In this document: positions 33,877 to 48,612 of the stretch, piece after piece
Position numbering within the stretch: the first letter of the stretch is position 1
How the letters are laid out: every line of letters begins with the position of its first letter
Source: Bdellovibrionales bacterium
GTDB taxonomy: Bacteria > Bdellovibrionota > UBA1018 > CAIMNF01
Assembly (NCBI GenBank): GCA_040379745.1
Contig: JBEIKL010000001.1
Span: 1 to 59,483, forward strand
Direction of reading: 5' to 3'
DNA: 59,483 nt
Notes under the pieces: generated by a model
Database searches by the model: none
Told to the model about the DNA's origin: nothing
What the model saw: the letters and a program-made list of their open reading frames with translations, nothing else
Translations under genes and position numbers: made by a program

Positions 33877-34854
33877 ATGAAACGTTATACGATCAGATTG
33901 CCGAACTCGACTCCTCGGATCCGACTCGACGATTACCTGGTTTCCTGGCTTCCCTCGGCAACCGGCCTGGAACTGTCGAAGGCGAAGATTCGTCCGTTGA
34001 TCCTCTCCGGTTCCGTTTACGTGAATCGTCATCGCAACAAGATCCCTTCGAGTGAGATTTTCGCCGGAGCCGTGATCGAGGTGTATTTCGACGAGTCACG
34101 CATGAAGGCGGTGGAGACCAAATCGGTGGCGCAACCCATCGGCCTGACGGCGGCAAAAGTCCTATATGAGGATGAGTGGATCATCCTGGTGAACAAGGAC
34201 CCGGGAATTCCGACTCAACCCACGATTGATCCGAACCGTCCGAACCTGTTCGATCTGACCCGCAAATATCTTTCAAAAAAAGAGGGAAAAGCCGAACCTT
34301 ATCTCGGTCTTCATCATCGTTTGGATCGCGACACATCCGGTGTGGTTCTCTTCACCAAAAGCGAATCCGCAAACAAAGGGGTTGCCGACCTGTTCGCCGG
34401 TCATCGGATCCAAAAGACCTATCAGTGTCTGGTATGGCGGGCTCCCGCTTCAGAACATCGGGATACGCAGGACCGCTTCACCGTGAAGAACTTCTTGGGA
34501 AGGGTTTCAGCGAAGAACGAAACGGCGCGATTCGGAAGCGTGAATTCGAATGGTGATCCGGCTCACACCGATTTCCGCGTGCTCGAGGTCTTTCGTCAGT
34601 GTTATTGGCTGGAAGCGATGCCACGCACGGGGAGGACGCACCAGATCCGTGTGCATGTTTCAGGGGAAAATCTGCCGATTCTCGGTGACCCCTTGTATTT
34701 CCCGAAGAATGTTTTCGCCATGGTCAACGCGCCAAGATTGATGTTGCACGCTCATCGGCTTCAGTTTGATCATCCGGTAACGGGTCTTCCCATGAATGTG
34801 GAAGCTCCATTACCGGAAGATTTCCTGAAAGTATTGAGTTCGCTGAAAGCCTGA
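33877..34854 (+). CDS. RluA-family 23S rRNA pseudouridine synthase with an S4-like N-terminus
   Basis: HHRLDRDTSGVVLFTK catalytic Asp motif and GRTHQIRVH. Confidence 0.85.
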   Translation: MKRYTIRLPNSTPRIRLDDYLVSWLPSATGLELSKAKIRPLILSGSVYVNRHRNKIPSSEIFAGAVIEVYFDESRMKAVETKSVAQPIGLTAAKVLYEDEWIILVNKDPGIPTQPTIDPNRPNLFDLTRKYLSKKEGKAEPYLGLHHRLDRDTSGVVLFTKSESANKGVADLFAGHRIQKTYQCLVWRAPASEHRDTQDRFTVKNFLGRVSAKNETARFGSVNSNGDPAHTDFRVLEVFRQCYWLEAMPRTGRTHQIRVHVSGENLPILGDPLYFPKNVFAMVNAPRLMLHAHRLQFDHPVTGLPMNVEAPLPEDFLKVLSSLKA

Positions 34855-34872: not shown

Positions 34873-37800
34873 TCAATCCACATCCGGCAGTTTTGTCGAC
34901 GCATCTACCGGTGCAATCGATACCGACAGGTTCGCCATGATGTCGAGAAGATCCTTGCGATAAGTTTTCGGTTCGACCGGGTCGCGATCCTCCGGATCCT
35001 TGCTCATGAACTTCCATTTGGTCACCCAGTAATAGAATTCCTTCGCGATCTTCAGCTTTTCGAACCATCCGTCATCGGGTCCGATCGAGCGCGGTGGGAC
35101 CCGTTTGATCAGAAGGTGCGCAAAGATGGCTTGAATTTGTTTCGGCTCTTCGTCCGGTTCACACGAACCGGATACGAACTCGCCCGCGGCCCGTTTGATC
35201 TCGCGGCAGAACACTGGAAATCCATCCATGCCTTCGCTGAACACGAGGTGCTGATCGTGGTTGCGATCCAGGCGTAAGAAGATGTTCTCAGCATAATACG
35301 GGGTCGACACCAGGGTTTCGAGATCATCGAGTTCAATCTCTCCCCGTTTCTTCCAGTCCGGATACGTTGCCGCAACCATGACAGAATTGATGAACTTCTT
35401 CACGTCCTGATCCGAGAGTTCGGTCAGGTAGTGCTTTGTCATGCGAGGAATCACTGCTTCGTACTGGTCGCGGAAGAATCCCTTGTCGAAAAACACGGTT
35501 TCCAGGCATTTCGTCGAGAACTTGTCCTGGGTGCGATAGGTGAGGTTCGATGGGTAGCATCGATTCACTAGATTTTTCCTCACCTGATCAAAGAGTTCCT
35601 TGCCAGCAAAGGTCGTCGTGAGGAATTCAACTGTTTCAACCACATCGATATGGCCATCGCCGTTACCCGTGCGGGTGAACAGGTTGATGCTTTGCATGCG
35701 ACGATCGGCTGAAATCTTCACTTCGTCCGGAGAGAACGAAAGGCCCAGTTCATAAACCGCATCGTTGATGTCGTCGAACAGATCATACAGATCATTGATG
35801 GTGAGTCGTGGCAGTGTACCCGGTTTTTCAGGGTCGGCTTCCACTTCATAAGCGGGAAGAATCCACATCAGGCCCTGATAGATCACCGACTTGTAACGAA
35901 GGTCTTCGAGGAAGTATTCCGAATAGGTGCCGTTATTTCCCGGGAAATAAGGCATTCCTGTTTCTTCGTTCAGGACCGGATGCAATGAGGAGACGATGAA
36001 CCGGGTATCCTGGCGTTGCAATTTGGATTCAAGTAAAGATCCTTGAAGCGGAGTTTTTGCAGGCAGTCCCCTGTAAGCCGCTTCCAGATCCTGAAGGTCG
36101 AGTTTGGCGAGTTTCAGGAAGTCGCGGATACCGGCGAGTTTCCAGGATGCGATGGAAGGGGGAAGGGTTTTTGGTTTTGGTCCCTTGTTCTTGTCTAGAA
36201 CGCGGTGATTTAGTGCGATCAACAAACGCTCAACCGTTTCCGGCCGCACTTTCATTCCCGGCCCTTTCAGTTGCGAGAACAGGAGTTCCTTCAGTGCGAA
36301 GTTCGAATACGTGAAGTCCTCATTGTCCATCATGCCTTGGAGCACGGCTTCCAAGATCGCCAGGGTGTGGCTGTTGAGTCCCGCTTCGTATCCGTTCGGA
36401 AGGTTTTGGGATACCGGTTTCAGATTTCGGAAAATGGTAAAGCCCAGTTGTGCCAGTTTCGAGAATTCACCTTTTTCCAAGCGATAGGACGATCCACCAA
36501 TCAGGAACGTCTTCAGGGGACCAACCAGATCATCCGTCAGTCCGAGCTTTTCGAGTTTCCGGTTTTCCGGAAGGAATCGGTCAATCGCGAACATCAGGTC
36601 CTTCAGTTTCACCGAGGAGAACGGATTGGTCTTGAAGAAGCGCGCGAGATTCTCCAGCGAGTCGGAAAGATCCGGTTTCTCACTGAAAGCTTTCCAGGCG
36701 GAATGCAATTGGGTCAGTTCCTGGTTGCTGATCGAATCGGCTCCGGTGGCGAACAGGACCGACTTCAGTCTTGCCGCATCCAACACCATCTCATCAAGAG
36801 CGGCCCAGTTCACCGTACTGGTGAGTTTCATCGTCGTGAACAGTTTTTCCGCATTCCGGATGACCGATCGGACCCGATCCACGCTGATGGCGGGAGCGGA
36901 TGGTTTTCTCAGCAATACTTCAAGTGAACCGGAAAGGGATTTGTTGAAATCGCCAGCACGCTGGCCTCCCCAAAGACTGTAAAGCTCACTGGCTTTCTTG
37001 AAGAGGATGCGGAAATCACGGACGCTCATCTTTCCGCTTTCCTTGCCGATCAGGATCGAACTCACGTCATCCATCATGGCGAAGATCAGGTCGATCGAAG
37101 CGTGATCACTCTCCTGTTCGAAGAGGATCTTCAGGCTACCGATGTATTCCCGCATTCTCGCCAATTGAATCACGGCAACCTTGCCATCACGGGCTTTTTC
37201 GAAAAGCTCGACCAGGTTGTCAGCCATGCGATCGATCACATCATCGCTCCGGTCGCCGTTCATGACTTTGGTCATGTCGTCGATCAGGAAGCCGGTCAGT
37301 CTCCGCATTGCCGGAGACCCGAAATAGCGTTTGATCGCCAGTTGGTCCTGGCTGTCAGGATAGAGGAATGCATTCAGAATCAGTGTTTTCGCCCATCGAT
37401 CCGAAAGAAGGGTGATCGTGCTTTTGGTGTAAACGCCTTGGTCGCGCTTCAGTTTTTTCAGGACCAGTGTGAGCATCTCGGTCGCTTTTTTCTGTTCCGC
37501 ATCGGTCGCGTCGATTTCGAGTCCGAGTTGCTCCATCATCTCGTTCGTGGTCGTGGTCAAGTAGAGTGCATTGTATACTGTTGAAATTGTCTTCAGGATC
37601 GGATGCCATTTCGCGCGCTCGATTCCGAACTCGTCTCCACCGACCACCATCAATTTCATGTATTGGAAAACCTGAACCTGTTCACGGATGACGGTCAGTG
37701 CGCTCGGGTTCGGAGCTCCAAGGTATTTTTCAAGTTCGCCCACGAACAGGGAGATCTCGGTCCAACTCACCGTGTTTTCGGAGTCACCCAGCAGGTCGGC

Positions 37801-38370
37801 CATATCGAGAACGAACTGGTTGAGCCGTTGGCCCGCCATCTGCGCCCGTCCATCCGAAAGGGTTTCAAACGGTTTCAGAAGTGTTGAAATGTAAGGAGCC
37901 AAAGGAAGGATGATCTCGCCAAACCGGTTCAGTTTCGCACGAAGCTTGATGATTTCTCCCTGGGTGATGCGATCAGGGGTGCCGCCCAGTACCGCCGTTT
38001 TCAGTTTGAAGATCGCGCCGACCAGGGATTTGCTGAAAAGTTGGTCCTGGGGAAGGTATCGGTTGGCGAAACTCTGGAGTTCCGAATCGCGATAGTACTC
38101 CTGGTTCACTCCCTTGGTGTATTTGGAAAAGGTGTTCAGAGACTGATCAAGACAGGCCCAGATTTCACCGATTTCCTTTTTGTCTTTCGGTGATTCCCGG
38201 TATTTTCCTGCAAAAAGATTCTGTAGCTGGGCTGGCATCACTCTCAAGCAAGAGAGGTCCATTTGTTTGGATTCGAAACTTTTTTGCGGTTTCGCTTCAT
38301 CACGGATCCACGAACAGGATGTCAGTACGAGCGATGCACTCATCGCCAAGGCAATCCATTTACAACGCAT
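34873..38370 (-). CDS. 1165-aa hypothetical lipoprotein, all-helical, with EF-hand-like loops
   Basis: Lipobox ASLVLTSC. No P-loop or other catalytic motif. Two EF-hand-like loops, TGNGDGHIDVVE (35635-35670) and DRNHDQHLVFSE (35233-35268), plus many degenerate copies. 11-nt overlap with the upstream barrel gene. Confidence 0.7.
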   Translation of the reverse strand: MRCKWIALAMSASLVLTSCSWIRDEAKPQKSFESKQMDLSCLRVMPAQLQNLFAGKYRESPKDKKEIGEIWACLDQSLNTFSKYTKGVNQEYYRDSELQSFANRYLPQDQLFSKSLVGAIFKLKTAVLGGTPDRITQGEIIKLRAKLNRFGEIILPLAPYISTLLKPFETLSDGRAQMAGQRLNQFVLDMADLLGDSENTVSWTEISLFVGELEKYLGAPNPSALTVIREQVQVFQYMKLMVVGGDEFGIERAKWHPILKTISTVYNALYLTTTTNEMMEQLGLEIDATDAEQKKATEMLTLVLKKLKRDQGVYTKSTITLLSDRWAKTLILNAFLYPDSQDQLAIKRYFGSPAMRRLTGFLIDDMTKVMNGDRSDDVIDRMADNLVELFEKARDGKVAVIQLARMREYIGSLKILFEQESDHASIDLIFAMMDDVSSILIGKESGKMSVRDFRILFKKASELYSLWGGQRAGDFNKSLSGSLEVLLRKPSAPAISVDRVRSVIRNAEKLFTTMKLTSTVNWAALDEMVLDAARLKSVLFATGADSISNQELTQLHSAWKAFSEKPDLSDSLENLARFFKTNPFSSVKLKDLMFAIDRFLPENRKLEKLGLTDDLVGPLKTFLIGGSSYRLEKGEFSKLAQLGFTIFRNLKPVSQNLPNGYEAGLNSHTLAILEAVLQGMMDNEDFTYSNFALKELLFSQLKGPGMKVRPETVERLLIALNHRVLDKNKGPKPKTLPPSIASWKLAGIRDFLKLAKLDLQDLEAAYRGLPAKTPLQGSLLESKLQRQDTRFIVSSLHPVLNEETGMPYFPGNNGTYSEYFLEDLRYKSVIYQGLMWILPAYEVEADPEKPGTLPRLTINDLYDLFDDINDAVYELGLSFSPDEVKISADRRMQSINLFTRTGNGDGHIDVVETVEFLTTTFAGKELFDQVRKNLVNRCYPSNLTYRTQDKFSTKCLETVFFDKGFFRDQYEAVIPRMTKHYLTELSDQDVKKFINSVMVAATYPDWKKRGEIELDDLETLVSTPYYAENIFLRLDRNHDQHLVFSEGMDGFPVFCREIKRAAGEFVSGSCEPDEEPKQIQAIFAHLLIKRVPPRSIGPDDGWFEKLKIAKEFYYWVTKWKFMSKDPEDRDPVEPKTYRKDLLDIMANLSVSIAPVDASTKLPDVD

Positions 38371-39673
38371 AAGTTACCCCCAGTCTGATTCGGTCCAGAG
38401 CGCGAAGATCGCCCAGGAATTCGGCTCCCCGATCGGACGAATTGAATCGTCCCGCATTGATCATGTCTCCACCCAAAATGGTGCTCCAGTTCGCAGTCCA
38501 TTGTTTTTTCCAGTCCAGGGCGATCCAATCGCCCGAGACCGCGTATTCGTGAAGAAAACGGGCGGTGATTTCATCCAGTTCGATGGTGAGCTGGGTCGCA
38601 TTCCGGAAAAGGATACGCGAACTGAACAGGTTTTGTTCCGAGTTCGGATTCGCATTCGGCCCGATATCGGCTCCGACTCCGCCAAACGAAAAAACCTGGG
38701 CGAGACGGAAAGAACCGAACTTCACCCACGGAGTCAGGTGGTTCGTAGCGCCCAGTGCAGTGACCGTATAATCGGATGGCAGGGAGCTCTCGGCGATGAT
38801 CTCGTCGCGGATCACCGATAGGCCAAGGCGGGTGGATTCACCGATCTCGGCACTGAGATCCGTGGAGTACACGGCATGGGAAAGGATTCTCGGGTGCAGA
38901 TCCACCACAATCTGATCGAGATTGATGTTCAGTGCCGCCTGAAGAGCCACGGGGAAATAATTCAACGGAAGATAACCCGCTGTTACGCGGATGTGGAATG
39001 GCGCCAGACTCTTCCTGCTTTCAATCGAGCCGAGTAGACTGGGTCTCAACAGGAGTTTGCCGAGTGAGGGAAGAGTCAAACGGTAACCCATCGGAGTCGG
39101 GCGACTGAGCAACTCGTAGGTCTGAGGTCCTGAGCTGACTGAATGCGGGTGATAGAACTGGAACTGATCGTTCTCAATGATCACGTTCGGAGTCGACTCC
39201 GGAATCATCAGATAGGAAGCGAACAGGTCAAAACGGATCGAATCATTTTCGGAAGAAAGGAACAGTCCGGTCAAGCCTTGAGAACTGGGACGGAGTCGAT
39301 CCCAGGAATTCAGTGGGTTCAGGATGCCGGTGTTCCAGATCTCATCGCCCTCACTCCAGTTGATCCACTTTCTTCCGATCGAGAACTGAAGCGGAGAGCT
39401 CGCTTCAAAAAAACGATAATGGAAATTTTTCGAAGTCAGTGCATTCGCTTTCGGGTGCGAGGGGTTGAATCGGAACTGAAGATCGTATTCCATTTGTTCC
39501 GACTGGCCATCCACTTCCGCCCGAATGATGGGAAAGAAGGAAGGCTTGGCTACTTCACGGTAAAATTGCGATTCAGCTCCAAGTCGCAAGTTTGCAGCAT
39601 GAACGGCTGGACCGTTCAGGTAGCAAATCGCTCCAATCAACGAGAAGAGTAGAATCGACATAGTGCGCCGCAT
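38360..39673 (-). CDS. hypothetical outer-membrane beta-barrel-like protein
   Basis: I chose the ATG at 39673 (MRRTMSILLFSLIGAICYLNGPAVHA signal peptide). Alternating hydrophobic/aromatic strand pattern and a C-terminal RIRLGVTYAL. Confidence 0.5.
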   Translation of the reverse strand: MRRTMSILLFSLIGAICYLNGPAVHAANLRLGAESQFYREVAKPSFFPIIRAEVDGQSEQMEYDLQFRFNPSHPKANALTSKNFHYRFFEASSPLQFSIGRKWINWSEGDEIWNTGILNPLNSWDRLRPSSQGLTGLFLSSENDSIRFDLFASYLMIPESTPNVIIENDQFQFYHPHSVSSGPQTYELLSRPTPMGYRLTLPSLGKLLLRPSLLGSIESRKSLAPFHIRVTAGYLPLNYFPVALQAALNINLDQIVVDLHPRILSHAVYSTDLSAEIGESTRLGLSVIRDEIIAESSLPSDYTVTALGATNHLTPWVKFGSFRLAQVFSFGGVGADIGPNANPNSEQNLFSSRILFRNATQLTIELDEITARFLHEYAVSGDWIALDWKKQWTANWSTILGGDMINAGRFNSSDRGAEFLGDLRALDRIRLGVTYAL

Positions 39674-39678
39674 GAAAC

Positions 39679-39723
39679 CATACTTTGATGGATCAGTCAA
39701 AGTATGATGTGTTAAAACACATC
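39679..39723. promoter_or_regulatory. two abutting perfect palindromes in a 52-nt divergent intergenic region; operator-like
   Basis: CATACTTTGA-tggatcag-TCAAAGTATG (39679-39706) and GATGTGTT-aa-AACACATC (39706-39723). The second ends 3 nt before the ATG at 39726. Confidence 0.4.
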
Positions 39724-39725
39724 AA

Positions 39726-42332
39726 ATGGACCGATTTTTGGACAAAATCTTGAGTGATATTGATGGTCTAGACCCGAAGGCTTCCTTAGTGCTCGGGTCG
39801 GGATTTGTCCGCGAGGAATGGAAAACCCTTTGTTTTAAAAAGGGTTATTCTCTCACTGGTTCAGCCATCCAGTCCATTCGGCAAATCGCAGTGAATTTGG
39901 TGCCAGAGTCGAAAGATCGGATTCTGGAAACCCACGCACGAGTTGAACTTTTGCGTCAGGAATTCAAGAAAGAATTACTTCGGGATGCGCTTCCTTTGCT
40001 CACTCGCCACCGTTCGCGTCCTTCTTATTTTGAAAAACTCGATCAGACCTTGCAGCAGGGACGAATGAACTTTGCCCATGCCGAAGAGTCCGAAGTCATT
40101 GAAAGCCAGTTGGTCGAAAAAACGGGGGATCTTCGCAAAAGGGAGGAGTTCTTTCTCCTGAACCGTTACTGGCAACAGTTCCTGATTCGAAACGAACTCT
40201 GGGACGAAGCCCGACTTTATGAAACCGCAGTGGAGCGACTGGCCTCCGGCGATGGAAAACTTTTCCCTCTTTATTATCGGGTCGATCACCTGCGTGAAAA
40301 ACCCCGGATCGAATGGTTCTGGTCCGAGTTGTCCCGTTACGCTGAAATCCGATCGGTGTCCTCGCTGGAAATCATCCGGGAAATCTATCCATCCCTTCAT
40401 CCGGGTGAGGGGTTGTACTTCACCCGAAAACGCGCGCACTCGCTGGAAGATGCGGCGAACTTCCTTCTGGATGAGGTCGTGGTGGATCCCGATCATCGTA
40501 TTGTGGTCATTGAGGACGTACCGGTGATTCGTCGGACCCTTCAGCGGGTCGCTTCCCAGCGCGGTCTCTTTCTCATGGATTCCCGCGATCCGACCTTGGT
40601 TTCCCGCAGTGAGGCGGTCAAGCTCGCGATTCTCGATCTAGAGCTTGTGGCGAGGAATTTTTCCCGCGCATCAGTCTTGGAGTGGTTACGCCAGTTCGTT
40701 CCGGCTTCGGGCGAACAACGCAAGAAAATCGTCGACGGCGCCATCGTTCAGGGGCTCGCATCCTATGAGCGTGTACCGGCCGTTCATTTCCAACTTCGCA
40801 GGGTTTTTGACCGTTATCCATCGCGGCTCAGTCTTGTTCAGCTGGAAAAGGCGATCCTCGAATCGATCCGCATCCATGAGCTTCCGGTTTGGACCAATCG
40901 GGTGATCCTGAGGTTGTTCGATGAGTGGAATAAGTCACTCCGTCAGATCGGCATGCATCGCATGCGCAAGCCCCTGCGTTTCTGGCACGAGCAATTGCGT
41001 GAACGGCTGAAGCAGGTGAACCCGGTCATTGATCCGACCAAGAACCGGAAGGGGCTTCGCATTCACCGGGTCGATCAGTGTCCGAGCCTGCTGTTGCATC
41101 CGGAAAATGTGAAAATCCATTTTTTCGGAATATCCAATTCTTTTTTCGAATCCAAGGAATCACAGGGAGAGTGGTTCAGTGTGCGCGATCAGGAAATCCT
41201 TTCTGGAGAATTCGGATGGCTTTCTTCGCTTGATCGGAGCGATCAGAACCGCAAATCCTTCGATCTGTGGAACCTGAACGAAGGTTCGGTGTTCTGGGAA
41301 TTCGAATACGATTCAAGCGGTGCTGAAACTGAAGGTTTCGATTTCACACTGGGAGACCAGAATCGCTATCCGCTTCAGTTGGTCGGAGCGCATCCCCGCA
41401 TGATTCCATCGTGGAAAGGTACGACCCCGGTTCCGATGGAAGTGAAAAACCTGCGTCTCCCTGTGCGAGCGGAAGGCGAAAAGAATTCCTGGCCGTTTTC
41501 CTTTCTCAATGCCTACGGAAACTGTCCCTTCATCGCCTATTCCCAGCAATTGCTTCGCATTCAGGATGAACGCGATGTGGAGGTTGAGCTCGCCGCCGAC
41601 CGTTTCGGAACCCTCCTGCATTCGGCACTCGAGGAGATCTCGAAAAATCCATCCATCGCAATCGAAGAGGCGTTCGAGATCGCTTGGAAAAAGACGCCGA
41701 CCACTGCTTGGGAATGGAATGAACGCTGGTATCAGGCCACTCGCGCCCGGGTCCTGAAAACGCTGCAAACTTTCGCCGCCGATGAAATCGAGTACCGAGC
41801 ACGTTCCGGAACCGATCTGCTGGAATCCGAAAAGGAAGTGGAAGTCGAATTGTCCGGACTTCCGTTGAGAGGGCGAATCGATCGAATCGATCGTCATGAC
41901 GATGGTCTTGTGGTCATGGATTACAAGACGGGTGGGGGATCGGTCGACGGAACCAAGGCGATCGAGATCGGAAAGAACCTCCAGCTCGGGTTGTATGCCC
42001 TTGCGGTCAGGAAGTTGCTGGGAGAAGAGGTGATCACCGCCCAGTACGTGAAGATTGACGAAACCGGTGTGAACCGCAATTCCGGCTTCCTGTTCAGTCG
42101 CTGGAACAAGGGAAAAAAGGCCGATCCGGTGGAAAAACCCGTTTCAACGGCTCGATCGGTCAGCAAATCCCTTTTTACCGTCGAACCGGAGGAGATCTGG
42201 CAGAAAGTCGAAACAAGGGTCGACAGCCTGGCTCAGTCCATTCGTGAAGGGGATTATTCTCCTAAGCCAGCCGATCCGAAAGATTGCGCAGAATGTCGCT
42301 ACCAGGCTGTTTGTGGAGAATCGCGGCGTTAA
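39726..42332 (+). CDS. AddB-like PD-(D/E)XK nuclease with a 4-Cys iron-sulfur staple and an inactive helicase-like N-terminal region
   Basis: Nuclease motif RGRIDRIDRHDDGLVVMDYKTG. The first cluster Cys is in NAYGNCPFIAYSQQLL and the C-terminal CxxCx5C is in DCAECRYQAVC. I saw no Walker A motif. Confidence 0.7.
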   Translation: MDRFLDKILSDIDGLDPKASLVLGSGFVREEWKTLCFKKGYSLTGSAIQSIRQIAVNLVPESKDRILETHARVELLRQEFKKELLRDALPLLTRHRSRPSYFEKLDQTLQQGRMNFAHAEESEVIESQLVEKTGDLRKREEFFLLNRYWQQFLIRNELWDEARLYETAVERLASGDGKLFPLYYRVDHLREKPRIEWFWSELSRYAEIRSVSSLEIIREIYPSLHPGEGLYFTRKRAHSLEDAANFLLDEVVVDPDHRIVVIEDVPVIRRTLQRVASQRGLFLMDSRDPTLVSRSEAVKLAILDLELVARNFSRASVLEWLRQFVPASGEQRKKIVDGAIVQGLASYERVPAVHFQLRRVFDRYPSRLSLVQLEKAILESIRIHELPVWTNRVILRLFDEWNKSLRQIGMHRMRKPLRFWHEQLRERLKQVNPVIDPTKNRKGLRIHRVDQCPSLLLHPENVKIHFFGISNSFFESKESQGEWFSVRDQEILSGEFGWLSSLDRSDQNRKSFDLWNLNEGSVFWEFEYDSSGAETEGFDFTLGDQNRYPLQLVGAHPRMIPSWKGTTPVPMEVKNLRLPVRAEGEKNSWPFSFLNAYGNCPFIAYSQQLLRIQDERDVEVELAADRFGTLLHSALEEISKNPSIAIEEAFEIAWKKTPTTAWEWNERWYQATRARVLKTLQTFAADEIEYRARSGTDLLESEKEVEVELSGLPLRGRIDRIDRHDDGLVVMDYKTGGGSVDGTKAIEIGKNLQLGLYALAVRKLLGEEVITAQYVKIDETGVNRNSGFLFSRWNKGKKADPVEKPVSTARSVSKSLFTVEPEEIWQKVETRVDSLAQSIREGDYSPKPADPKDCAECRYQAVCGESRR

Positions 42333-42378
42333 AACCTCGTGCGGGCTCAAAAAAAATCATGTTACACTGAAGGGGAAA

Positions 42379-44022
42379 ATGTGGAAAACATTGCGCTCCA
42401 AGGTATTCGGTTTTCTCTCCTTCCTGATCCTGGTCAGCATTGCCGGCGTTGGCGTCAGCTTCTGGATCACGCAGAAACTCAATGAGCGCACGACTGAAGT
42501 CAATTTGCGCACTTTTCCCATTCAGAAAAACCTGATCCAACTCAACGCCGACACCGAAATTCTCAAACGCGAGATGGACCGCAGTCTCGGACAGGCCCAC
42601 TGGAATAACGGTTTCTGGAAGCCGAAGAGGATTCCGTCATGGGTGATGGAATCCCATCGAGACACTTTGGAAAAATTCAAGCCTACTGATTTCATCTCCG
42701 ACTCCTGGAAGGAATGGCACCACCGAATGCTCTTCCTGCATGAACAGTTGGAACAACTTTCCGAACAGACCTATCTGGCCCTGATCGAGGAAAATCAGTT
42801 AAAAGCAGCCGAACTCGGATCCCGATGGAACACGTCCCTCGAAACCCTTCAGAAGGAAATCGACTGGGCAAAGCGCCAGATCGAAGAGGAAACCCGTTCT
42901 TCATTCAAGAAAGTGCAGGAAGAAGTGAAGGACCTTCGCTTCGCACTTCAAATCCTGTTGCTGGTGGTGATCAGTGTCGCACTTCTGATGTTGTGGATGG
43001 GAGAGCGCGCGCTCCGCCCCATCGATCATCTTCGGAAAATGGTGAAACAGGTCACTGAGCGTGGAGCCCTGACCATGGAAGCGAAAGCGAGCCTTCCTTT
43101 GGCATCCATTCTTCACAAGGATGAGGTGAGCGAGTTGGCCCGCGAGTTCCATCAGATGGCGGTCAGTCTTCTCGAGCGGGAAAAAATGATCGAATCGCAA
43201 AAGAACCGTCTCGAGGAGCAGAACAAAATGCTTCTGCAGATGAGCGAATTGCAGAAACGTCTCCAGGAGGCCGAACATCTTGCCGGAATCGGACGCCTTT
43301 CCGCGCAGGTCGCCCATGAAGTCGGAAATCCACTGCATTCCATCGGACTGGAAGCGGAATTGGCCATCGATCTTTTGCAGGAAATGCAGGCCAAGGAAAC
43401 CGATTCCGCCAAAGCGATTCACCTTCGCCAGTCGCTTCAGTCGATCCTGGCCAGCGTGGAACGATTGAAGAACATCACCATGAATTACCTGCGCATCTCC
43501 AAGGGCAGAATGCAAACCAAACACGTGAACATTTCCGAAGTGATTGAATCGACCCTCGCGACTTATGCGAACTCCATTCAACAGGCAGGCGCCCGTATCC
43601 GCTGGTTTTATCCGGAGAACTTCAAGAACGAGGAAAGGCTCGTGGTCAATGTCGATCCTGCGTTACTCGAGCAGGCCTTTGGAAACCTGATCCGCAATTC
43701 CCTTCAGGCAATGGCCGATGTTCGCGAAGGACGGATTGACATCCAAGTCAGTCTTACCGATCAGGAAACACTGATGGTTCAATTCTTCGACAACGGAAAG
43801 GGGATCGTTTCTTCCGATCGGGAAAACATTTTCAAGCCGTTCTTCACGACGAAGGCGGATGGTACCGGCCTCGGACTTTCTTTTGTGAAAAAAGTTTTCA
43901 CTGATCACGGCGGTTCATTCGTCCTCCGCGATTCCAACAAAGAAGGCACCTTGTTCGAGGGCGTCCTGCCCTTGAGTACCCTGGCGCTTGAAAAACCGGT
44001 TGAAAGCGGGGCAATGGCATGA
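42379..44022 (+). CDS. sensor histidine kinase (2 TM, periplasmic loop, HAMP-like, HisKA, HATPase)
   Basis: I chose the ATG at 42379 (AAGGGGA upstream). H-box SAQVAHEVGNPLHSI, N/G boxes FDNGKGI and GTGLGLSFVKKV. Confidence 0.85.
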   Translation: MWKTLRSKVFGFLSFLILVSIAGVGVSFWITQKLNERTTEVNLRTFPIQKNLIQLNADTEILKREMDRSLGQAHWNNGFWKPKRIPSWVMESHRDTLEKFKPTDFISDSWKEWHHRMLFLHEQLEQLSEQTYLALIEENQLKAAELGSRWNTSLETLQKEIDWAKRQIEEETRSSFKKVQEEVKDLRFALQILLLVVISVALLMLWMGERALRPIDHLRKMVKQVTERGALTMEAKASLPLASILHKDEVSELAREFHQMAVSLLEREKMIESQKNRLEEQNKMLLQMSELQKRLQEAEHLAGIGRLSAQVAHEVGNPLHSIGLEAELAIDLLQEMQAKETDSAKAIHLRQSLQSILASVERLKNITMNYLRISKGRMQTKHVNISEVIESTLATYANSIQQAGARIRWFYPENFKNEERLVVNVDPALLEQAFGNLIRNSLQAMADVREGRIDIQVSLTDQETLMVQFFDNGKGIVSSDRENIFKPFFTTKADGTGLGLSFVKKVFTDHGGSFVLRDSNKEGTLFEGVLPLSTLALEKPVESGAMA

Positions 44023-45347
44023 AAATCCTGGTCGTGGATGATGATCCGCAATCGCTTTCCTCCACCGGTCGCATCCTGGAACACGCCGGTCATGAAGTGG
44101 TGTACGCCTCTTCGGGCGACGAGGCTTTGGGTGTTCTGGATCGGATTTCACCGGTAATGGTCATCACCGATGTGCGCATGCCAGGCATGAACGGAATGCA
44201 GTTCGTCGAGGCTTATCAGAAAAAAGGGTTTCAAATTCCGTTCGTGATCATGACCGCGTTCGGTGAAGTGCAGGATGCGGTGTGGGCGATGAAAATGGGC
44301 GCTGTCGATTTCCTGTTGAAGCCATTTTCGAAGCAGGACCTTTGCAAGGCCGTCGATCAGGTGCTGGTCCGAACCCGCAAAACGGATCGTGGAACCGTGC
44401 TCGAGTTGCAGGACAAAAGCACGATGATCGGTTCGTCCAAGACCATGCAAAAACTGAGAACCCATATCAGCCAAGTGGCGACAACGGACGCCTCTGTGTT
44501 GGTACTCGGTGAGAGTGGAACTGGAAAAGAGCTGGTTTCACAGATGATTCATGATCAGAGTGTGCGCTCGAAAAAGCCGTTCATCGCGGTGAATTGCGCG
44601 GCCATTCCGGAAAACCTCATGGAGAGCGAACTCTTCGGTTATGAGCGCGGGGCTTTTTCTGGTGCCGATCATTCACGTGCAGGGCTGATTGAAGCCGCGG
44701 ATGGTGGAACGCTCTTGCTGGATGAAATCGGTGACATGCCTCTTTCCTTGCAACCGAAACTCCTGAGGGTGTTGGAAACGCAAACTCTTCGACGCTTGGG
44801 ATCCGTACAGGAGCGCAAGCTGAATGTCCGCTTCATTGCAGCGACTCATCAGAATTTGCTGGAGAGGGTGAGGCAGGGTTTGTTCCGGCAAGATCTTTAT
44901 TATCGCTTGGAAGTCATGCCGCTGAATGTTCCATCCCTTAGGGAGCATCCTGAAGACATCCCCGAGCTGATCCAATTCTATCTTGGCAGGTTTTCCGCCG
45001 AACACTTTAAAGTCATCTCCGGAATCGAATCGGATGCGCAAGCAATGCTCATGAGTCATCCGTGGCCCGGAAATGTGCGGGAACTTTCGAATGTCCTGGA
45101 AAGGGCAGTAGTGTTGAATTCCAGCGGCCGGATTGCTTGCGCAGACCTGCCGATCCATATTTCACCGTCCACTGGCAATGGCTCCGAAATCACGATTCCC
45201 CTTGGAACCAGCCTCAAGGAAATCGAAGACCTTTTGATCCAGAAAACGCTGGATCTGACCAACGGGGACCGGGCACAGGCCGCCAGGATGCTGGGAGTGA
45301 ATGAACGGACGGTTTATCGCTGGATCAATCGATCCAAAGAAGATTGA
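44019..45347 (+). CDS. sigma-54-dependent response regulator, NtrC family (REC-AAA+-HTH)
   Basis: ATGA overlap with the kinase gene. REC block MVITDVRMPGMNG. AAA+ motifs VLGESGTGKELVSQMIH and ESELFGYERGAFSGA. HTH RAQAARMLGVNERTVYRWI. Confidence 0.9.
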   Translation: MKILVVDDDPQSLSSTGRILEHAGHEVVYASSGDEALGVLDRISPVMVITDVRMPGMNGMQFVEAYQKKGFQIPFVIMTAFGEVQDAVWAMKMGAVDFLLKPFSKQDLCKAVDQVLVRTRKTDRGTVLELQDKSTMIGSSKTMQKLRTHISQVATTDASVLVLGESGTGKELVSQMIHDQSVRSKKPFIAVNCAAIPENLMESELFGYERGAFSGADHSRAGLIEAADGGTLLLDEIGDMPLSLQPKLLRVLETQTLRRLGSVQERKLNVRFIAATHQNLLERVRQGLFRQDLYYRLEVMPLNVPSLREHPEDIPELIQFYLGRFSAEHFKVISGIESDAQAMLMSHPWPGNVRELSNVLERAVVLNSSGRIACADLPIHISPSTGNGSEITIPLGTSLKEIEDLLIQKTLDLTNGDRAQAARMLGVNERTVYRWINRSKED

Positions 45348-45903
45348 TCTTCCAGGAGCGGATCTGATCGTCTCCGCCCGGAAGGATGGTCGCATGGATT
45401 TCCATTCTCAGGTTGCGGGACAAGTGGTAGCAGAATCCTCGAAAAACTTCGAGATACAGTGAACAGAGTTCGGAGTGATCGATCGGGGAAGCCAGCCAGT
45501 AGAATGAGCAGCTGTTTGCCGTTTTCCTTTCGAGAATGAAAGGATCGGAATGCTGGAGATTCCCTGTTTTCAGGCTCGAAATCGCCAGAAATGCATCATG
45601 TGGATGGTCGATGTTTGCTTGGGGCCACTCTTTTTCGGCAAGGCTCTTTCCGTATTGCCAGCTGGCGCTTTGCAATTGGTTGAATTGGCTTGCCGGTGAA
45701 TCCGATATCGACAACGTTTCCAAGAGCGTTCGTTGCTGATGATTGAAAAGTTCAGCCCATCCCACTGAACCGGTCAGAATCGACTTCTCTTCGACCGGTG
45801 CGTTCCAGAGCATGCTCAGAGAAATGAAATTTCGAAGCTGGTTCTCTTTGCGAGTTTCTTCAATCAGGGGGTAAGGCGAATTCCAGTGTGACTCAGGCAA
45901 CAT
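45325..45903 (-). CDS. hypothetical cytoplasmic protein (192 aa)
   Basis: It starts 9 nt after the stop of the 899-aa gene, in the same operon. No signal peptide. The C-terminal part (CSFYWLASPIDHSELCSLYLEVFRGFCYHL...) has only a vague V4R-like look. Confidence 0.5.
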   Translation of the reverse strand: MLPESHWNSPYPLIEETRKENQLRNFISLSMLWNAPVEEKSILTGSVGWAELFNHQQRTLLETLSISDSPASQFNQLQSASWQYGKSLAEKEWPQANIDHPHDAFLAISSLKTGNLQHSDPFILERKTANSCSFYWLASPIDHSELCSLYLEVFRGFCYHLSRNLRMEIHATILPGGDDQIRSWKINLLWID

Positions 45904-45912
45904 GATTCATCC

Positions 45913-48612
45913 TCACTGCAAAAGCCCCATTTTTAAAGCGGATGTGTTTTCCAGGGTTTCAATCAGGCACGCGCTGAGAAGATGTTTCAGTTCTTTTTTT
46001 CTCATTTTTTCCGCGTGGTAGGCCTTGATGATCTGATTGCTGACGATCCGGATCTGTTCCGGATTTTTAGGAATGCGGATCTCAAGACAGATTTCCTTCC
46101 AGGTCGGTTCGGCAACGATGTTTCTCATTACCACCAGTTTATCCAAAGTCTGTTCACGAATCCAGCTGTCCTGAATGTGCAAGAATTGGGTGAGTCCCTT
46201 GTTGGTCGCCAGAACGATACCGGGTGTCGGTTGCTGAACCGCACTGATGCTGGAGATCGCCTGGTGTTCAGGCATGGTCGGAGTGAAGCGGATCAACGGG
46301 TGCTGATCGATGCGGCACAGATCACCATCTTGAAGGACAAACTTCTCCAGCTGGTGTTGGAGGATTTGGCCGTCTTCCGACACCATGGAGAACAGGGCCG
46401 CTTGTTCCTTTCGCTGCTGATAAAGCACTTGAGCCGCGAGAACGAAAATTTTCGATTTCAAGGAAGCCGATTCCTGTTTTTTGCTTTCCAAGAGGGTCAG
46501 AGCTTCACCCGGCTTGGACGGCACCAGTGAGATCAGTCGCTCCTCGAGAGGACTCAGTGGAATCAACGAAGCCTGAAGATGGGATTCCTTCAGGTATCGG
46601 CAGATGTGTTTCGGAATCGGGATCGATTTGACATCGGATTCCTTCAGCATCCAGTTTCCTTTTTTGCGTTCCGCGGAATACTGCAACCAATCCCGCGTGA
46701 GGTGCGAACGGATCAGTGACTGAAGCGGTACGGACCAGCTGCCATCCTGCGGGTAGATGATGAACACGTTTCCTTTTTTCATCGGATCATTCGGCAGATC
46801 GGCTTCTTCAGCCGTGAAGATCTCGTTTCCTTGTGAGCCGGTCTCAGACCAGAGGAAGTACCGGGGCGGAGAGGAAATCATCGGATTACCCGGTGTGGAG
46901 CTGGAAAGGTTCCGGATGAGTTCCACCCAGGAAACCATTCTGACGATGGCCAGTTCTCCCAGTGGGGTGGAGCTCCGCTTCAGGGATTCGATCTGATCAA
47001 CCATCTCATCGTCAGCCGGGTTGAACCAGTGTTGTTCCCATTCGCGTTGTTCGATCGGGCTGATCCGGGAATGAATCTGGAACGGTTCGTGAGGGAAGCT
47101 CTGATCGGGTTTCTTCAGTAGCGAGAAAATGCGATCAAACAAGAGTTGTACATCCGTGGAGTTGTTCACGGCTCCGTACGTCTTGATCATGATCGGACGA
47201 TGGCCTTTCCGTTCTTCCATCTGGTTCTCTCGTTGGAAAACATAAAGCGCTTTGGGAAGATCTCGCTTGATCGAATCCTGGGAACATTGGAGTGCGCTCA
47301 GGTCGGCGATGAAGAGGAGCTTTGCCTGATTGAGGATGAAGTGAAGGGCGTTCTTTCCCGAAGTCTCATCCAGGATTTCTTCCCGTGCCCAGACGAGGAT
47401 GCCGCCCTGTCTTAGTTTGTCGAGGGACTGGCACGCCTGATAGATTCCGCGCGTGGTGTTCTGATCCTTCACTTTTTTCAGCACCGAATGCTGATCAATC
47501 TGCTTCCGGAGAGCCTGTCCTGCCAGGGTTCTTGACTGCGTCCGGATCGGATTCTCCTCGGCAATGATGGAAATCTCGCAGGAGGAAATCGCTTCGATCT
47601 GCTGGATGATGTTCTGTTTTCCGCAATGGGTGAGTTGAAGCGAGGATTGGTGGTCCATGCTCATTTCGAGACTGCTTCCACGGATCCAGAGAGGAAGTGT
47701 TTTCGGTTCGCTCCAAAGATAACGGATTTCACAGAAAAGAAGCTCGAACGAAAGCGGTTCGAATCCGATCCATTCGATGTGTTCGGGGGAATGATCCATC
47801 ATGGAACCATCGCGAAGGGTGGGGCAGAAGCCGAATACCGATCGCTCGGACTGACGGATCAGCTGATGGCTTTGCATGGATTTCCAAAGATAGCGGTAAA
47901 AATACTTGCTGTAACGATCTCGTTCGCCAAGCGTATCGGCTGAAATTTTCCGTGCTTTGACCAACAGCCATTCCTTGATTTTCTCAAGCCCCGGATCTTC
48001 TGAAGTCGCGGATTCGATCAGGTTCCAAAGTTGGTTCTGATGGTTGGCGGTGAGGTTGTACCAGGAATAGAAATTCTGCTGGATCAATTGGCTGGTCGAA
48101 GTCTGAAGATTCACGAAAGAACTCATCGCCTTGTTGATGGCGGATGTGAGGTTCTTCAGGTCCATCATCACGAATTTTTCCTTGGACCACGATTTCACCA
48201 ATAGGGCTTTTCCCAATTGCACGAATGCGATCTGCCGGAACAGGTGTTTCAATGCTTCCTGTGCTTGGGGGGAGCGGTCTTGTGCGATGAATTCCTTCAG
48301 TTTTTCCTGCGGATTTTCCGGTTCCGGTTGCTTGGAGAGTTCAGCGAGGAAGCGACCGATGCTTTCCCTTCTGGACGGGTTGAGTTTGCAAAGTTGATCC
48401 GCGTTTTTCAGGAGTTCCTGAACCACGTCCTCGATGAATTGATTGAGCTGTTTTTCAAGAAAATATGCCGGGGTGACGGGTGCGGAAGGGGGAATGGACT
48501 GACTGGAAATCGGATCAATCGGGGCGCGTTCAACCTTGCCAGAATTGAGTTTGGACTCGATTCTGTCTCTCTGGAGCAAGTTTGTTAAGTTGAAGCCAGG
48601 TTGTTTGTTCAT
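45913..48612 (-). CDS. hypothetical cytoplasmic protein (899 aa) with no recognisable catalytic motif
   Basis: Long uninterrupted ORF with no signal peptide, TM segment or P-loop. One block, DKLRQGGILVWAREEILDETSGKNALHFILNQAKLLFIADLSAL, resembles the post-catalytic region of N6-adenine DNA methyltransferases. There is no (D/N/S)PP(Y/F/W) motif and no SAM-binding loop. Confidence 0.65.
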   Translation of the reverse strand: MNKQPGFNLTNLLQRDRIESKLNSGKVERAPIDPISSQSIPPSAPVTPAYFLEKQLNQFIEDVVQELLKNADQLCKLNPSRRESIGRFLAELSKQPEPENPQEKLKEFIAQDRSPQAQEALKHLFRQIAFVQLGKALLVKSWSKEKFVMMDLKNLTSAINKAMSSFVNLQTSTSQLIQQNFYSWYNLTANHQNQLWNLIESATSEDPGLEKIKEWLLVKARKISADTLGERDRYSKYFYRYLWKSMQSHQLIRQSERSVFGFCPTLRDGSMMDHSPEHIEWIGFEPLSFELLFCEIRYLWSEPKTLPLWIRGSSLEMSMDHQSSLQLTHCGKQNIIQQIEAISSCEISIIAEENPIRTQSRTLAGQALRKQIDQHSVLKKVKDQNTTRGIYQACQSLDKLRQGGILVWAREEILDETSGKNALHFILNQAKLLFIADLSALQCSQDSIKRDLPKALYVFQRENQMEERKGHRPIMIKTYGAVNNSTDVQLLFDRIFSLLKKPDQSFPHEPFQIHSRISPIEQREWEQHWFNPADDEMVDQIESLKRSSTPLGELAIVRMVSWVELIRNLSSSTPGNPMISSPPRYFLWSETGSQGNEIFTAEEADLPNDPMKKGNVFIIYPQDGSWSVPLQSLIRSHLTRDWLQYSAERKKGNWMLKESDVKSIPIPKHICRYLKESHLQASLIPLSPLEERLISLVPSKPGEALTLLESKKQESASLKSKIFVLAAQVLYQQRKEQAALFSMVSEDGQILQHQLEKFVLQDGDLCRIDQHPLIRFTPTMPEHQAISSISAVQQPTPGIVLATNKGLTQFLHIQDSWIREQTLDKLVVMRNIVAEPTWKEICLEIRIPKNPEQIRIVSNQIIKAYHAEKMRKKELKHLLSACLIETLENTSALKMGLLQ

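Follow-up and report, generated by a model that had tools for sequence, protein, structure and literature searches.

What do two overlapping genes at positions 34,873–39,673 of a 59,483-nucleotide (nt) stretch of Bdellovibrionales DNA (contig JBEIKL010000001.1; the whole stretch is called the window here) encode, and do their products work together in the cell envelope? Open reading frame (ORF) calling places a 1165-amino-acid (aa) frame on the minus strand (34873..38370) with a 446-aa frame just upstream (38360..39700, TTG start), the latter becoming 437 aa when read from the ATG at 39673. The original prediction, of a 437-aa signal-peptide protein overlapping a 1165-aa lipoprotein by 11 nt, agrees with these ORFs and their translations. 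We find that the gene pair is genuine and not a chance arrangement, an uncharacterised cassette that is Bdellovibrionota-wide, and that its products are very probably an outer-membrane β-barrel and an EF-hand lipoprotein. With moderate confidence, we propose that the two make a coupled 1:1 outer-membrane complex, in which the barrel would dock a calcium-stabilised scaffold lipoprotein.

34873..38370, minus strand: gene for the predicted 1165-aa all-α lipoprotein, with ~16 helix-loop-helix units
38360..39673, minus strand: gene for the predicted 437-aa outer-membrane β-barrel, with an alternative TTG start at 39700

The junction between the genes, of exactly 11 nt (38360–38370), is read in two frames, and the end of the barrel gene also appears to supply the signals from which translation of the lipoprotein would begin.

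38360..38370, minus strand: overlap of 11 nt, ATGCGTTGTAA, coding in two frames, as Tyr-Ala-Leu-stop at the end of the barrel and as Met-Arg-Cys-Lys at the start of the lipoprotein
38377..38381, minus strand: GGGGG resembling a Shine-Dalgarno sequence for the lipoprotein gene, supplied by the Gly-Val codons in the barrel β-signal

Junction DNA was read in the window and nine further loci, and all ten have an 11-nt overlap of the form [A/T]TG-NNT-TNT-AR, at GC contents ranging from 36 to 60%. The barrel ends in Tyr-(Ala/Val)-(Phe/Leu)-stop and the start codon of the lipoprotein is made up of the AT of the Tyr codon and the G of the next (TATGCNTTYTAR); in one distant locus (L023) the Tyr is replaced by Val and the lipoprotein starts with TTG, the register being unchanged. 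Gly-Val codons (GGGGGT or GGAGT) lie 6–7 nt upstream of the lipoprotein start, the position of a Shine-Dalgarno sequence, in most junctions, and GGAG, GGGGG or GGGGT occupies this place in most related ones. As read from the DNA, the barrel codons Gly-Val-x-Tyr-Ala/Val-Phe/Leu-stop also encode the predicted Shine-Dalgarno sequence and start codon of the lipoprotein. The overlap forces the lipoprotein N-terminus into M-[HPRLYSCF]-[FSCY]-[KNSRDE], a tetrapeptide present (as MFSK, MFFK, MSSK, MRFK and others) in 86 of the 113 family representatives that begin with Met and carry a lipobox, against a chance expectation of ~2–3, so the overlapped arrangement probably holds across most of the family. 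Such conservation argues strongly for translational coupling of the two genes and for equimolar production of their products. Two of the public gene calls misplace the lipoprotein start, nine codons too far upstream in L008 (10001–12238) and ~40 codons too far downstream in L023 (8001–12386), where the TTG is missed; these misplaced starts hide the lipobox or signal peptide, together with the 11-nt overlap, in the annotations.

The pairing of the genes extends to every locus examined. Loci were gathered through barrel homologues, through lipoprotein homologues and by scanning metagenomes with the barrel alignment, and in all 22 that carry a barrel homologue the next gene downstream, in the same orientation, belongs to the lipoprotein family, bearing out the idea that the pair is a co-conserved barrel-plus-lipoprotein module. 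The orthologous loci keep a wider block of nuclease, histidine kinase, sigma-54 regulator, RluA and RelA genes, into which two ATP-binding cassette (ABC) exporter genes are sometimes inserted, and linkage seen within this block might be nothing more than synteny. Five distant cassettes (L008, L009, L010, L022 and L023) have entirely different neighbours, and a barrel homologue still lies directly upstream of each lipoprotein gene. The lipoproteins of these cassettes (745, 774, 1027, 1289 and 1461 aa, one of them from Bdellovibrio sp. ArHS) are ~25% identical to that of the window; the upstream barrels are recognised at three loci by hhalign (probability 99.7–100%; E 2.4e-26, 2e-30 and 2.3e-49) and at the other two by hmmsearch (E 1.4e-50 and 9.2e-125). 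Across 105 locus pairs the identities of the two proteins rise and fall together (r=0.88); duplication and divergence have therefore affected the cassette as a unit. One member of the set, L021 (107–2559), lies on a 3.1-kb metagenome contig and has both genes split over several reading frames, the mark of either a pseudogenised cassette or assembly errors.

These observations bear directly on whether the two proteins might act independently and share no more than expression from one compact operon. Bacteria with compact genomes often have overlapping genes, and the physical interaction of the two products is a presumed one. Independence is nevertheless hard to reconcile with linkage at 22 of 22 loci even where all other neighbours differ, with an 11-nt junction that persists at ~25% protein identity and across the full range of GC contents, with overlap-forced residues at most family N-termini, and with the co-divergence of the two proteins; we regard it as highly improbable.

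Searches of Pfam, NCBIfam, PADLOC and PDB sequences gave no match for either protein, and when the 56 barrel homologues were scanned singly against Pfam at E≤5 there were no matches at all. The proteins do have relatives of their own, and the original prediction that both are orphans has to be given up. The barrel has 56 homologues (36–90% identity), and an exhaustive HMMER search of 1.84 billion cluster representatives (50% identity) returned 903 relatives of the lipoprotein at E≤1e-3, 505 of them at E≤1e-10. About 20 of the latter family are full-length orthologues of 1100–1200 aa; most others are 720–1050 aa and a few 1250–1500 aa long, and both shorter and longer relatives share the N-terminal (~1–270) and C-terminal (~850–1100) regions of the query. 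All named relatives belong to the Bdellovibrionota (Oligoflexia, Bdellovibrionales and Bdellovibrio sp. ArHS), to which the family is apparently confined. Exact-sequence look-ups of both window proteins gave no identical entry in a collection that does not hold the window's own genome, a scan of GTDB genomes with the lipoprotein gave one partial locus only, and no description of the barrel/lipoprotein family was found in literature on Bdellovibrio with EF-hand, lipoprotein or calcium. The positions originally predicted for both proteins, outside characterised families and conserved together, are thus upheld by the database and locus searches alike. One contig, L001 (CALPVV020000103.1, 1–6638), comes from a metagenome-assembled genome (MAG) labelled 'Nitrosovibrio sp. 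Nv4' and carries RelA/SpoT, RluA, two ABC exporters and the C-terminus of a lipoprotein (64% identical) in the order seen in the Bdellovibrionota loci L002, L003 and L006; it is probably a mis-binned Bdellovibrionota contig.

An AlphaFold2 model of the upstream gene product, built from the 56-sequence alignment, is all-β after the signal helix, with a predicted local distance difference test (pLDDT) score of 88.8 and a predicted template modelling (pTM) score of 0.85.

39596..39673, minus strand: predicted Sec (signal peptidase I) signal peptide of the barrel, MRRTMSILLFSLIGAICYLNGPAVHA, from the translation; an N-terminal helix of low pLDDT at residues 2–18 in the model
39260..39376, minus strand: most conserved barrel stretch, residues 100–138, GRKWINWSEGDEIWNTGILNPLNSWDRLRPSSQGLTGLF; 13 invariant columns in the 56-sequence alignment

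Cleavage is placed at MRRTMSILLFSLIGAICYLNGPAVHA|A in the translation, and secondary structure assignment of the model with DSSP gives ~18–21 strands. Foldseek comparison with the PDB returned 226 matches at E≤1e-3, led by OmpF/OmpC/OmpT porins, OprD/Occ, AlgE and MOMP (E 4e-9 to 1e-7), and the 50 matches listed are all outer-membrane barrels or OmpF-derived constructs. The family C-terminus, ...DRIRLGVxY[VA][FL], is a classical β-signal, ending Y-V/A-F in 39 of 56 members and Y-A-L in nine, the window and its close relatives among these. Signal peptide, all-β barrel model and C-terminal β-signal are together the marks of a generic outer-membrane β-barrel, so what had been a guess from the sequence pattern is now backed by the model and its porin, OprD and AlgE matches. 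The invariant positions of residues 100–138 include W106, D110, W113, W124, D125 and R128; in the model this stretch covers the end of one strand (95–102), a long non-strand gap with one short helix and the start of the next strand (134–142), and it may form a lumen-folded loop resembling porin L3.

Such a barrel invites a reading of the pair as a nutrient or ion uptake unit, with a substrate-specific channel and a substrate-capturing or gating lipoprotein, as a SusCD analogue or a calcium-gated pore. The best structural matches (OmpF/OmpC, OprD/Occ, AlgE, MOMP) are indeed diffusion channels, the most conserved barrel residues fall in a long loop at the position of the porin constriction loop, and EF-hands in the partner could couple calcium to gating. 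The pair nevertheless has no TonB box, plug domain or SusD/TPR (tetratricopeptide repeat) fold, a repetitive helical protein of 1165 aa would make an odd substrate-binding lid, and transporter or catabolic genes are not consistently linked to the cassette. An uptake role therefore seems improbable to us.

The second gene product begins MRCKWIALAMSASLVLTSC and has the n-region charge, hydrophobic h-region and lipobox ([LVI][ASTVI][GAS]C) of a bacterial lipoprotein, confirming that it is a large lipoprotein, predicted to be acylated at Cys19 after the signal MRCKWIALAMSASLVLTS.

38314..38370, minus strand: predicted lipoprotein signal peptide, lipobox L-T-S-C, with Cys19 as the predicted acylation site (translation)
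38251..38313, minus strand: tether following the lipid Cys, SWIRDEAKPQKSFESKQMDLS, conserved but modelled with low confidence; it may bind the barrel or thread through it
37516..38250, minus strand: N-terminal domain common to the whole family, residues 41–285, with an invariant Cys41–Cys73 pair and LKxxxxGG motifs
34915..35823, minus strand: C-terminal domain common to the whole family, residues ~850–1152, with EF-hand loops and an invariant Cys938–Cys955 pair

Cys19 is kept in 73 of 74 aligned family members and a lipobox is found in 60 of 91, the others being fragments or having differently called starts. The AlphaFold2 model (91-sequence alignment) is wholly helical (pLDDT 92.1, pTM 0.73) and consists of ~16 repeats of a helix, a short loop with a 1–3-residue β-bridge and a second helix, which is the secondary-structure signature of EF-hand-type units as judged from the model. 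Internal repeats are also detected by hhalign (residues 75–139 against 569–635, 88% probability; 189–270 against 574–651, 92.7%). Foldseek searches of the PDB and of the predicted viral structures in BFVD with the whole model gave no significant match, the best being α-solenoids (E 1.4e-3, TM score ~0.1). The N-terminal domain is matched by most of the 720–1050-aa relatives, and the near-complete conservation of the lipid Cys and of the pairs Cys41/Cys73 and Cys938/Cys955 is what one would expect of a protein that lies outside the cytoplasm and is stabilised by disulfides.

Between the lipid and the first helix lies a segment modelled with low confidence (residues 20–40, with pLDDT <50 at residues 17–32) in which W21, D24, P26/K27, F32, L37, D38 and L39 are conserved among the 1100–1460-aa orthologues; the consensus in long orthologues is C-[SG]-W-x-[RHQ]-D-x-P-K...F...L-D-L. 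A tether that is unstructured in the model yet conserved in sequence is typical of a partner-binding linear segment.

Does the lipoprotein, then, belong to a family that can be named? The original prediction could name no enzymatic motif, P-loop or known repeat family in it, yet the C-terminal domain has a nameable motif, in the form of two EF-hand-type loops.

35635..35670, minus strand: EF-hand-type loop 1, TGNGDGHIDVVE, residues 901–912; all 83 sequences have G904, and 81 of them have E912
35233..35268, minus strand: canonical EF-hand loop 2, DRNHDQHLVFSE, residues 1035–1046; ligands conserved in the family

These are the only two loops of the lipoprotein that retain calcium ligands, the other helix-loop-helix units being without them. 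Loop 2 is canonical in the window and across the family (D1 84/85, N/D3 80/85, D/S/N5 80/85, G6 52/85, L/I8 78/85, E12 82/85), and loop 1 has conserved ligand positions 3, 5, 9 and 12 without a position-1 ligand. Compared with the PDB, the family profile matches ALG-2 (6e-8) and neurocalcin, calbindin and secretagogin (1e-6 to 1e-5) at an EF-hand near the C-terminal end of the profile that presumably corresponds to loop 2. Ten relatives scanned singly against Pfam gave EF-hand matches only below threshold, in several cases. We conclude that the C-terminal domain holds a true EF-hand and is predicted to bind calcium. It shares with ALG-2/PDCD6, calbindin D28k and secretagogin the 12-residue loop (D1, N/D3, D/S/N5, G6, L/I8, E12) and its flanking helices; those proteins are small soluble sensors or buffers with 2–6 hands, whereas here two ligand-competent loops end a predicted acylated protein of 1165 aa. 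Extracytoplasmic EF-hand proteins exist in bacteria, MltB/Slt35 being examples.

Comparison with known barrel–lipoprotein systems places the pair in three generic classes only, the outer-membrane β-barrels, the bacterial lipoproteins and, through the C-terminal loops, the EF-hand domains. As in SusC/SusD (RagA/RagB) of the Bacteroidota, a barrel gene is followed by the gene of a helical partner lipoprotein, there are many diverged paralogous pairs in one phylum, and a 1:1 complex is presumed. SusC, however, is a ~1000-aa TonB-dependent barrel of 22 strands with a plug and SusD a ~550-aa TPR-like lid, in contrast to a 437-aa barrel without a plug or TonB-dependent receptor domain and a 1165-aa lipoprotein of helix-loop-helix units and EF-hands. 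Neither the SusC barrel families (PF07715 plug, PF00593) are matched in Pfam by the window protein or its 56 homologues at E≤5, nor does the model have an N-terminal plug, and SusD/RagB families (PF07980, PF12771) are equally without a Pfam match, with no SusD-like structure among Foldseek results from the PDB. The resemblance to Slam (DUF560) with TbpB, fHbp or HpuA in Neisseria and other Proteobacteria lies in a barrel linked to a lipoprotein that it could help to surface; in Slam itself a TPR domain precedes a DUF560 barrel of 14 strands and the substrates are β-rich, none of which applies to the pair. The Slam family (PF04575) has no Pfam match here, and the barrel model, with ~18–21 strands, has no helical domain ahead of the barrel apart from the signal peptide. 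Two-partner secretion (FhaC/ShlB with TpsA) is likewise set aside, there being no Pfam matches to POTRA, ShlB or TPS domains and the partner being an all-α, predicted acylated protein. The domain tests thus support the earlier view that the sequences resemble neither SusCD, Slam nor two-partner systems.

In LptD/LptE, and in RcsF threaded through OmpA, OmpC or OmpF, a lipoprotein is lodged in or passes through a barrel, an arrangement that may apply here too, where a short conserved tether follows the lipid Cys. At ~130–190 aa, LptE and RcsF are α/β proteins of a sixth to a ninth the size of the present lipoprotein. LptD, for its part, has 26 strands and an OstA domain, and the pair has no sequence or domain match to this system; membership of this system was rejected as there was no Pfam or NCBIfam match (OstA/LptD, LptE). 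The porins (OmpF/OmpC, OprD/Occ, AlgE and Campylobacter MOMP) are the best Foldseek matches of the barrel model and share with the barrel a signal peptide, a C-terminal Y-x-F signal and a long conserved internal loop, yet porins have no obligatory, translationally coupled giant lipoprotein. No classical porin family (Porin_1, Porin_4, OprD), whose barrels have 16 or 18 strands, is matched in Pfam by any of the 56 members, and the likeness is generic (TM score 0.35–0.44).

How might the two proteins be assembled? In the arrangement we propose, the β-barrel assembly machinery (BAM) would insert the barrel in the outer membrane and the Lol system would carry the acylated lipoprotein there; of the 60 lipobox members, 40 have S, G or A at position +2 and two have Asp. 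The barrel would then dock, and possibly thread, the conserved 20-residue N-terminal tether of the lipoprotein. Calcium binding and disulfides would stiffen the C-terminal head, and the helical body, of variable length (720–1500 aa across the family), may serve as a projecting scaffold or adhesin. We consider it more likely that this body is on the cell surface than in the periplasm, a slight preference that follows from the size, strong divergence and length variation of the family, all of which tend to go with surface proteins.

The same complex could instead face the periplasm, the lipoprotein being held in the inner leaflet of the outer membrane, with RcsF-like threading or as an LptE-like plug, and its body acting as an envelope spacer or a tether to the peptidoglycan or inner membrane. 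Every orthologous locus lies in a housekeeping neighbourhood (RelA/SpoT, RluA, Gmk, YicC, AccA), the +2 rule predicts targeting to the outer membrane rather than surface exposure, disulfides and calcium binding are possible in the periplasm too, and the 20-residue tether would suit RcsF-type threading equally well. Family size, the 720–1500-aa spread and the ~25% identity between cassette types are, on the other hand, more typical of diversifying surface proteins than of a periplasmic housekeeping strut present in single copy, and no peptidoglycan-binding domain (OmpA_C, LysM, SPOR) was detected with Pfam. A periplasmic orientation is thus possible, and on this evidence rather unlikely.

Several points weigh against a barrel docking an EF-hand scaffold. 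Physical contact between the two proteins, and the orientation of the lipoprotein towards surface or periplasm, are inferred from the features above. The EF-hand likeness of ~14 non-C-terminal units comes solely from the secondary-structure pattern of the model, and the profile of the N-terminal domain found no EF-hand proteins in the PDB, matching only de novo helical bundles through compositional similarity. The strand number of the barrel (~18–21) is not settled by the model, its likeness to known barrels in Foldseek is generic, with a root mean square deviation of ~10 Å at the TM scores given, and its terminal residue in the window is Leu where the family usually has Phe. Gene neighbourhoods yield no functional hint, and the taxonomic restriction is based on six named homologues from five source records. 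What stands of the undescribed outer-membrane or surface complex originally proposed is the undescribed barrel–lipoprotein module, for which a complex and its surface exposure are presumed.

Can the surroundings of the pair add to this picture? The genes around it (RelA/SpoT, Gmk, YicC, AccA, an RluA-family synthase, and a histidine kinase with a sigma-54 regulator) and a window GC content of ~51% fit a chromosomal region of a Bdellovibrionota bacterium, and a hidden Markov model (HMM) search found no second copy of the cassette within the window. Upstream and divergent (39726..42332, plus strand) is a gene for an 868-aa AddB/Cas4-like PD-(D/E)XK protein (PF12705, 1.3e-36). This protein has a Cys cluster at its C-terminus (…DCAECRYQAVCG), and no AddA-type helicase gene is adjacent; a histidine kinase and then a sigma-54-dependent response regulator follow (42244–45347). 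The gene is divergent, as had been noted, across a 52-nt spacer, but its PF12705 match means that it is not the orphan it was taken for. A functional link of the pair to this nuclease, the kinase or the sigma-54 regulator was considered and rejected, all three being found with it only in the orthologous synteny block; the nuclease is absent beside L008, L009, L010, L022 and L023, which makes its association local synteny only.

39679..39724, no strand assigned: two perfect palindromes within the 52-nt divergent spacer (39674–39725)

The palindromes are CATACTTTGA-8-TCAAAGTATG (39679–39706) and TGATGTGTT-2-AACACATCA (39705–39724), and in shuffles of the surrounding 120 nt only 105 of 20,000 yielded even one repeat of such quality. 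CTTTG...CAAAG arms and TTGACT are kept in 6 of 7 closer orthologous loci, whereas the TGATGTGTT/AACACATCA palindrome is confined to the window and the 90%-identical L011, where one position is mismatched. The elaborate palindromes first described are therefore real and rare by chance, but one of them is limited to two loci. The spacer is a candidate operator or promoter region; no sigma-54 promoter upstream of the barrel gene was obvious by eye in these 52 nt, which were not scanned formally.

On its other side the lipoprotein gene ends 18 nt from the end of a convergent RluA-family gene (33877–34854). An imperfect 17-nt palindrome lies within its last codons (34884–34911), where a simple scan called no intrinsic terminator. 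The inserted exporters mentioned above are two tandem ABC genes (ABC_membrane plus ABC_tran, ~545–557 aa each) between the lipoprotein gene and RluA in L002, L003 and L006 (~14.7–18.2 kb), absent in the window and in L004. Further away, genes for proteins of 899 aa (45913–48612, minus strand) and 192 aa (45325–45903, minus strand) have no Pfam or PADLOC match; counterparts of 897–939 aa and 192–248 aa, with no recorded Pfam match, occupy the same place in L002–L006. By sequence, these genes (45325–48612) are a second uncharacterised gene pair.

Envelope biogenesis, the capture of nutrients and the display of proteins at the surface all depend heavily on pairs of a barrel and a lipoprotein (LptDE, SusCD, Slam with its surface lipoproteins, RcsF/OmpA), and the family described here is a large one, of at least 903 clusters at 50% identity, that lies outside all of these. 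Its dual-coding junction, where a β-signal encodes the predicted ribosome-binding site and start of the partner, offers a clean system for the study of stoichiometric co-production, and the lipoprotein is a very large all-helical predicted fold without a solved counterpart. Hundreds of 'hypothetical protein' entries in Bdellovibrionota genomes and MAGs could be annotated as one family pair. The predation of this phylum needs envelope-to-envelope contact and depends on divalent cations, and the family would bring to it a conserved extracytoplasmic EF-hand domain. As a speculation that we think doubtful at present, the pair may be a barrel-dependent surface-lipoprotein display system specific to predatory Bdellovibrionota, with the small barrel as a dedicated translocon and anchor, the tether threaded through it and a calcium-switched rod of EF-hand-derived repeats outside. 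Were this so, paralogues differing in rod length would have roles in contact with prey or in envelope attachment, and the family would be tied to the divalent-cation dependence of predation.

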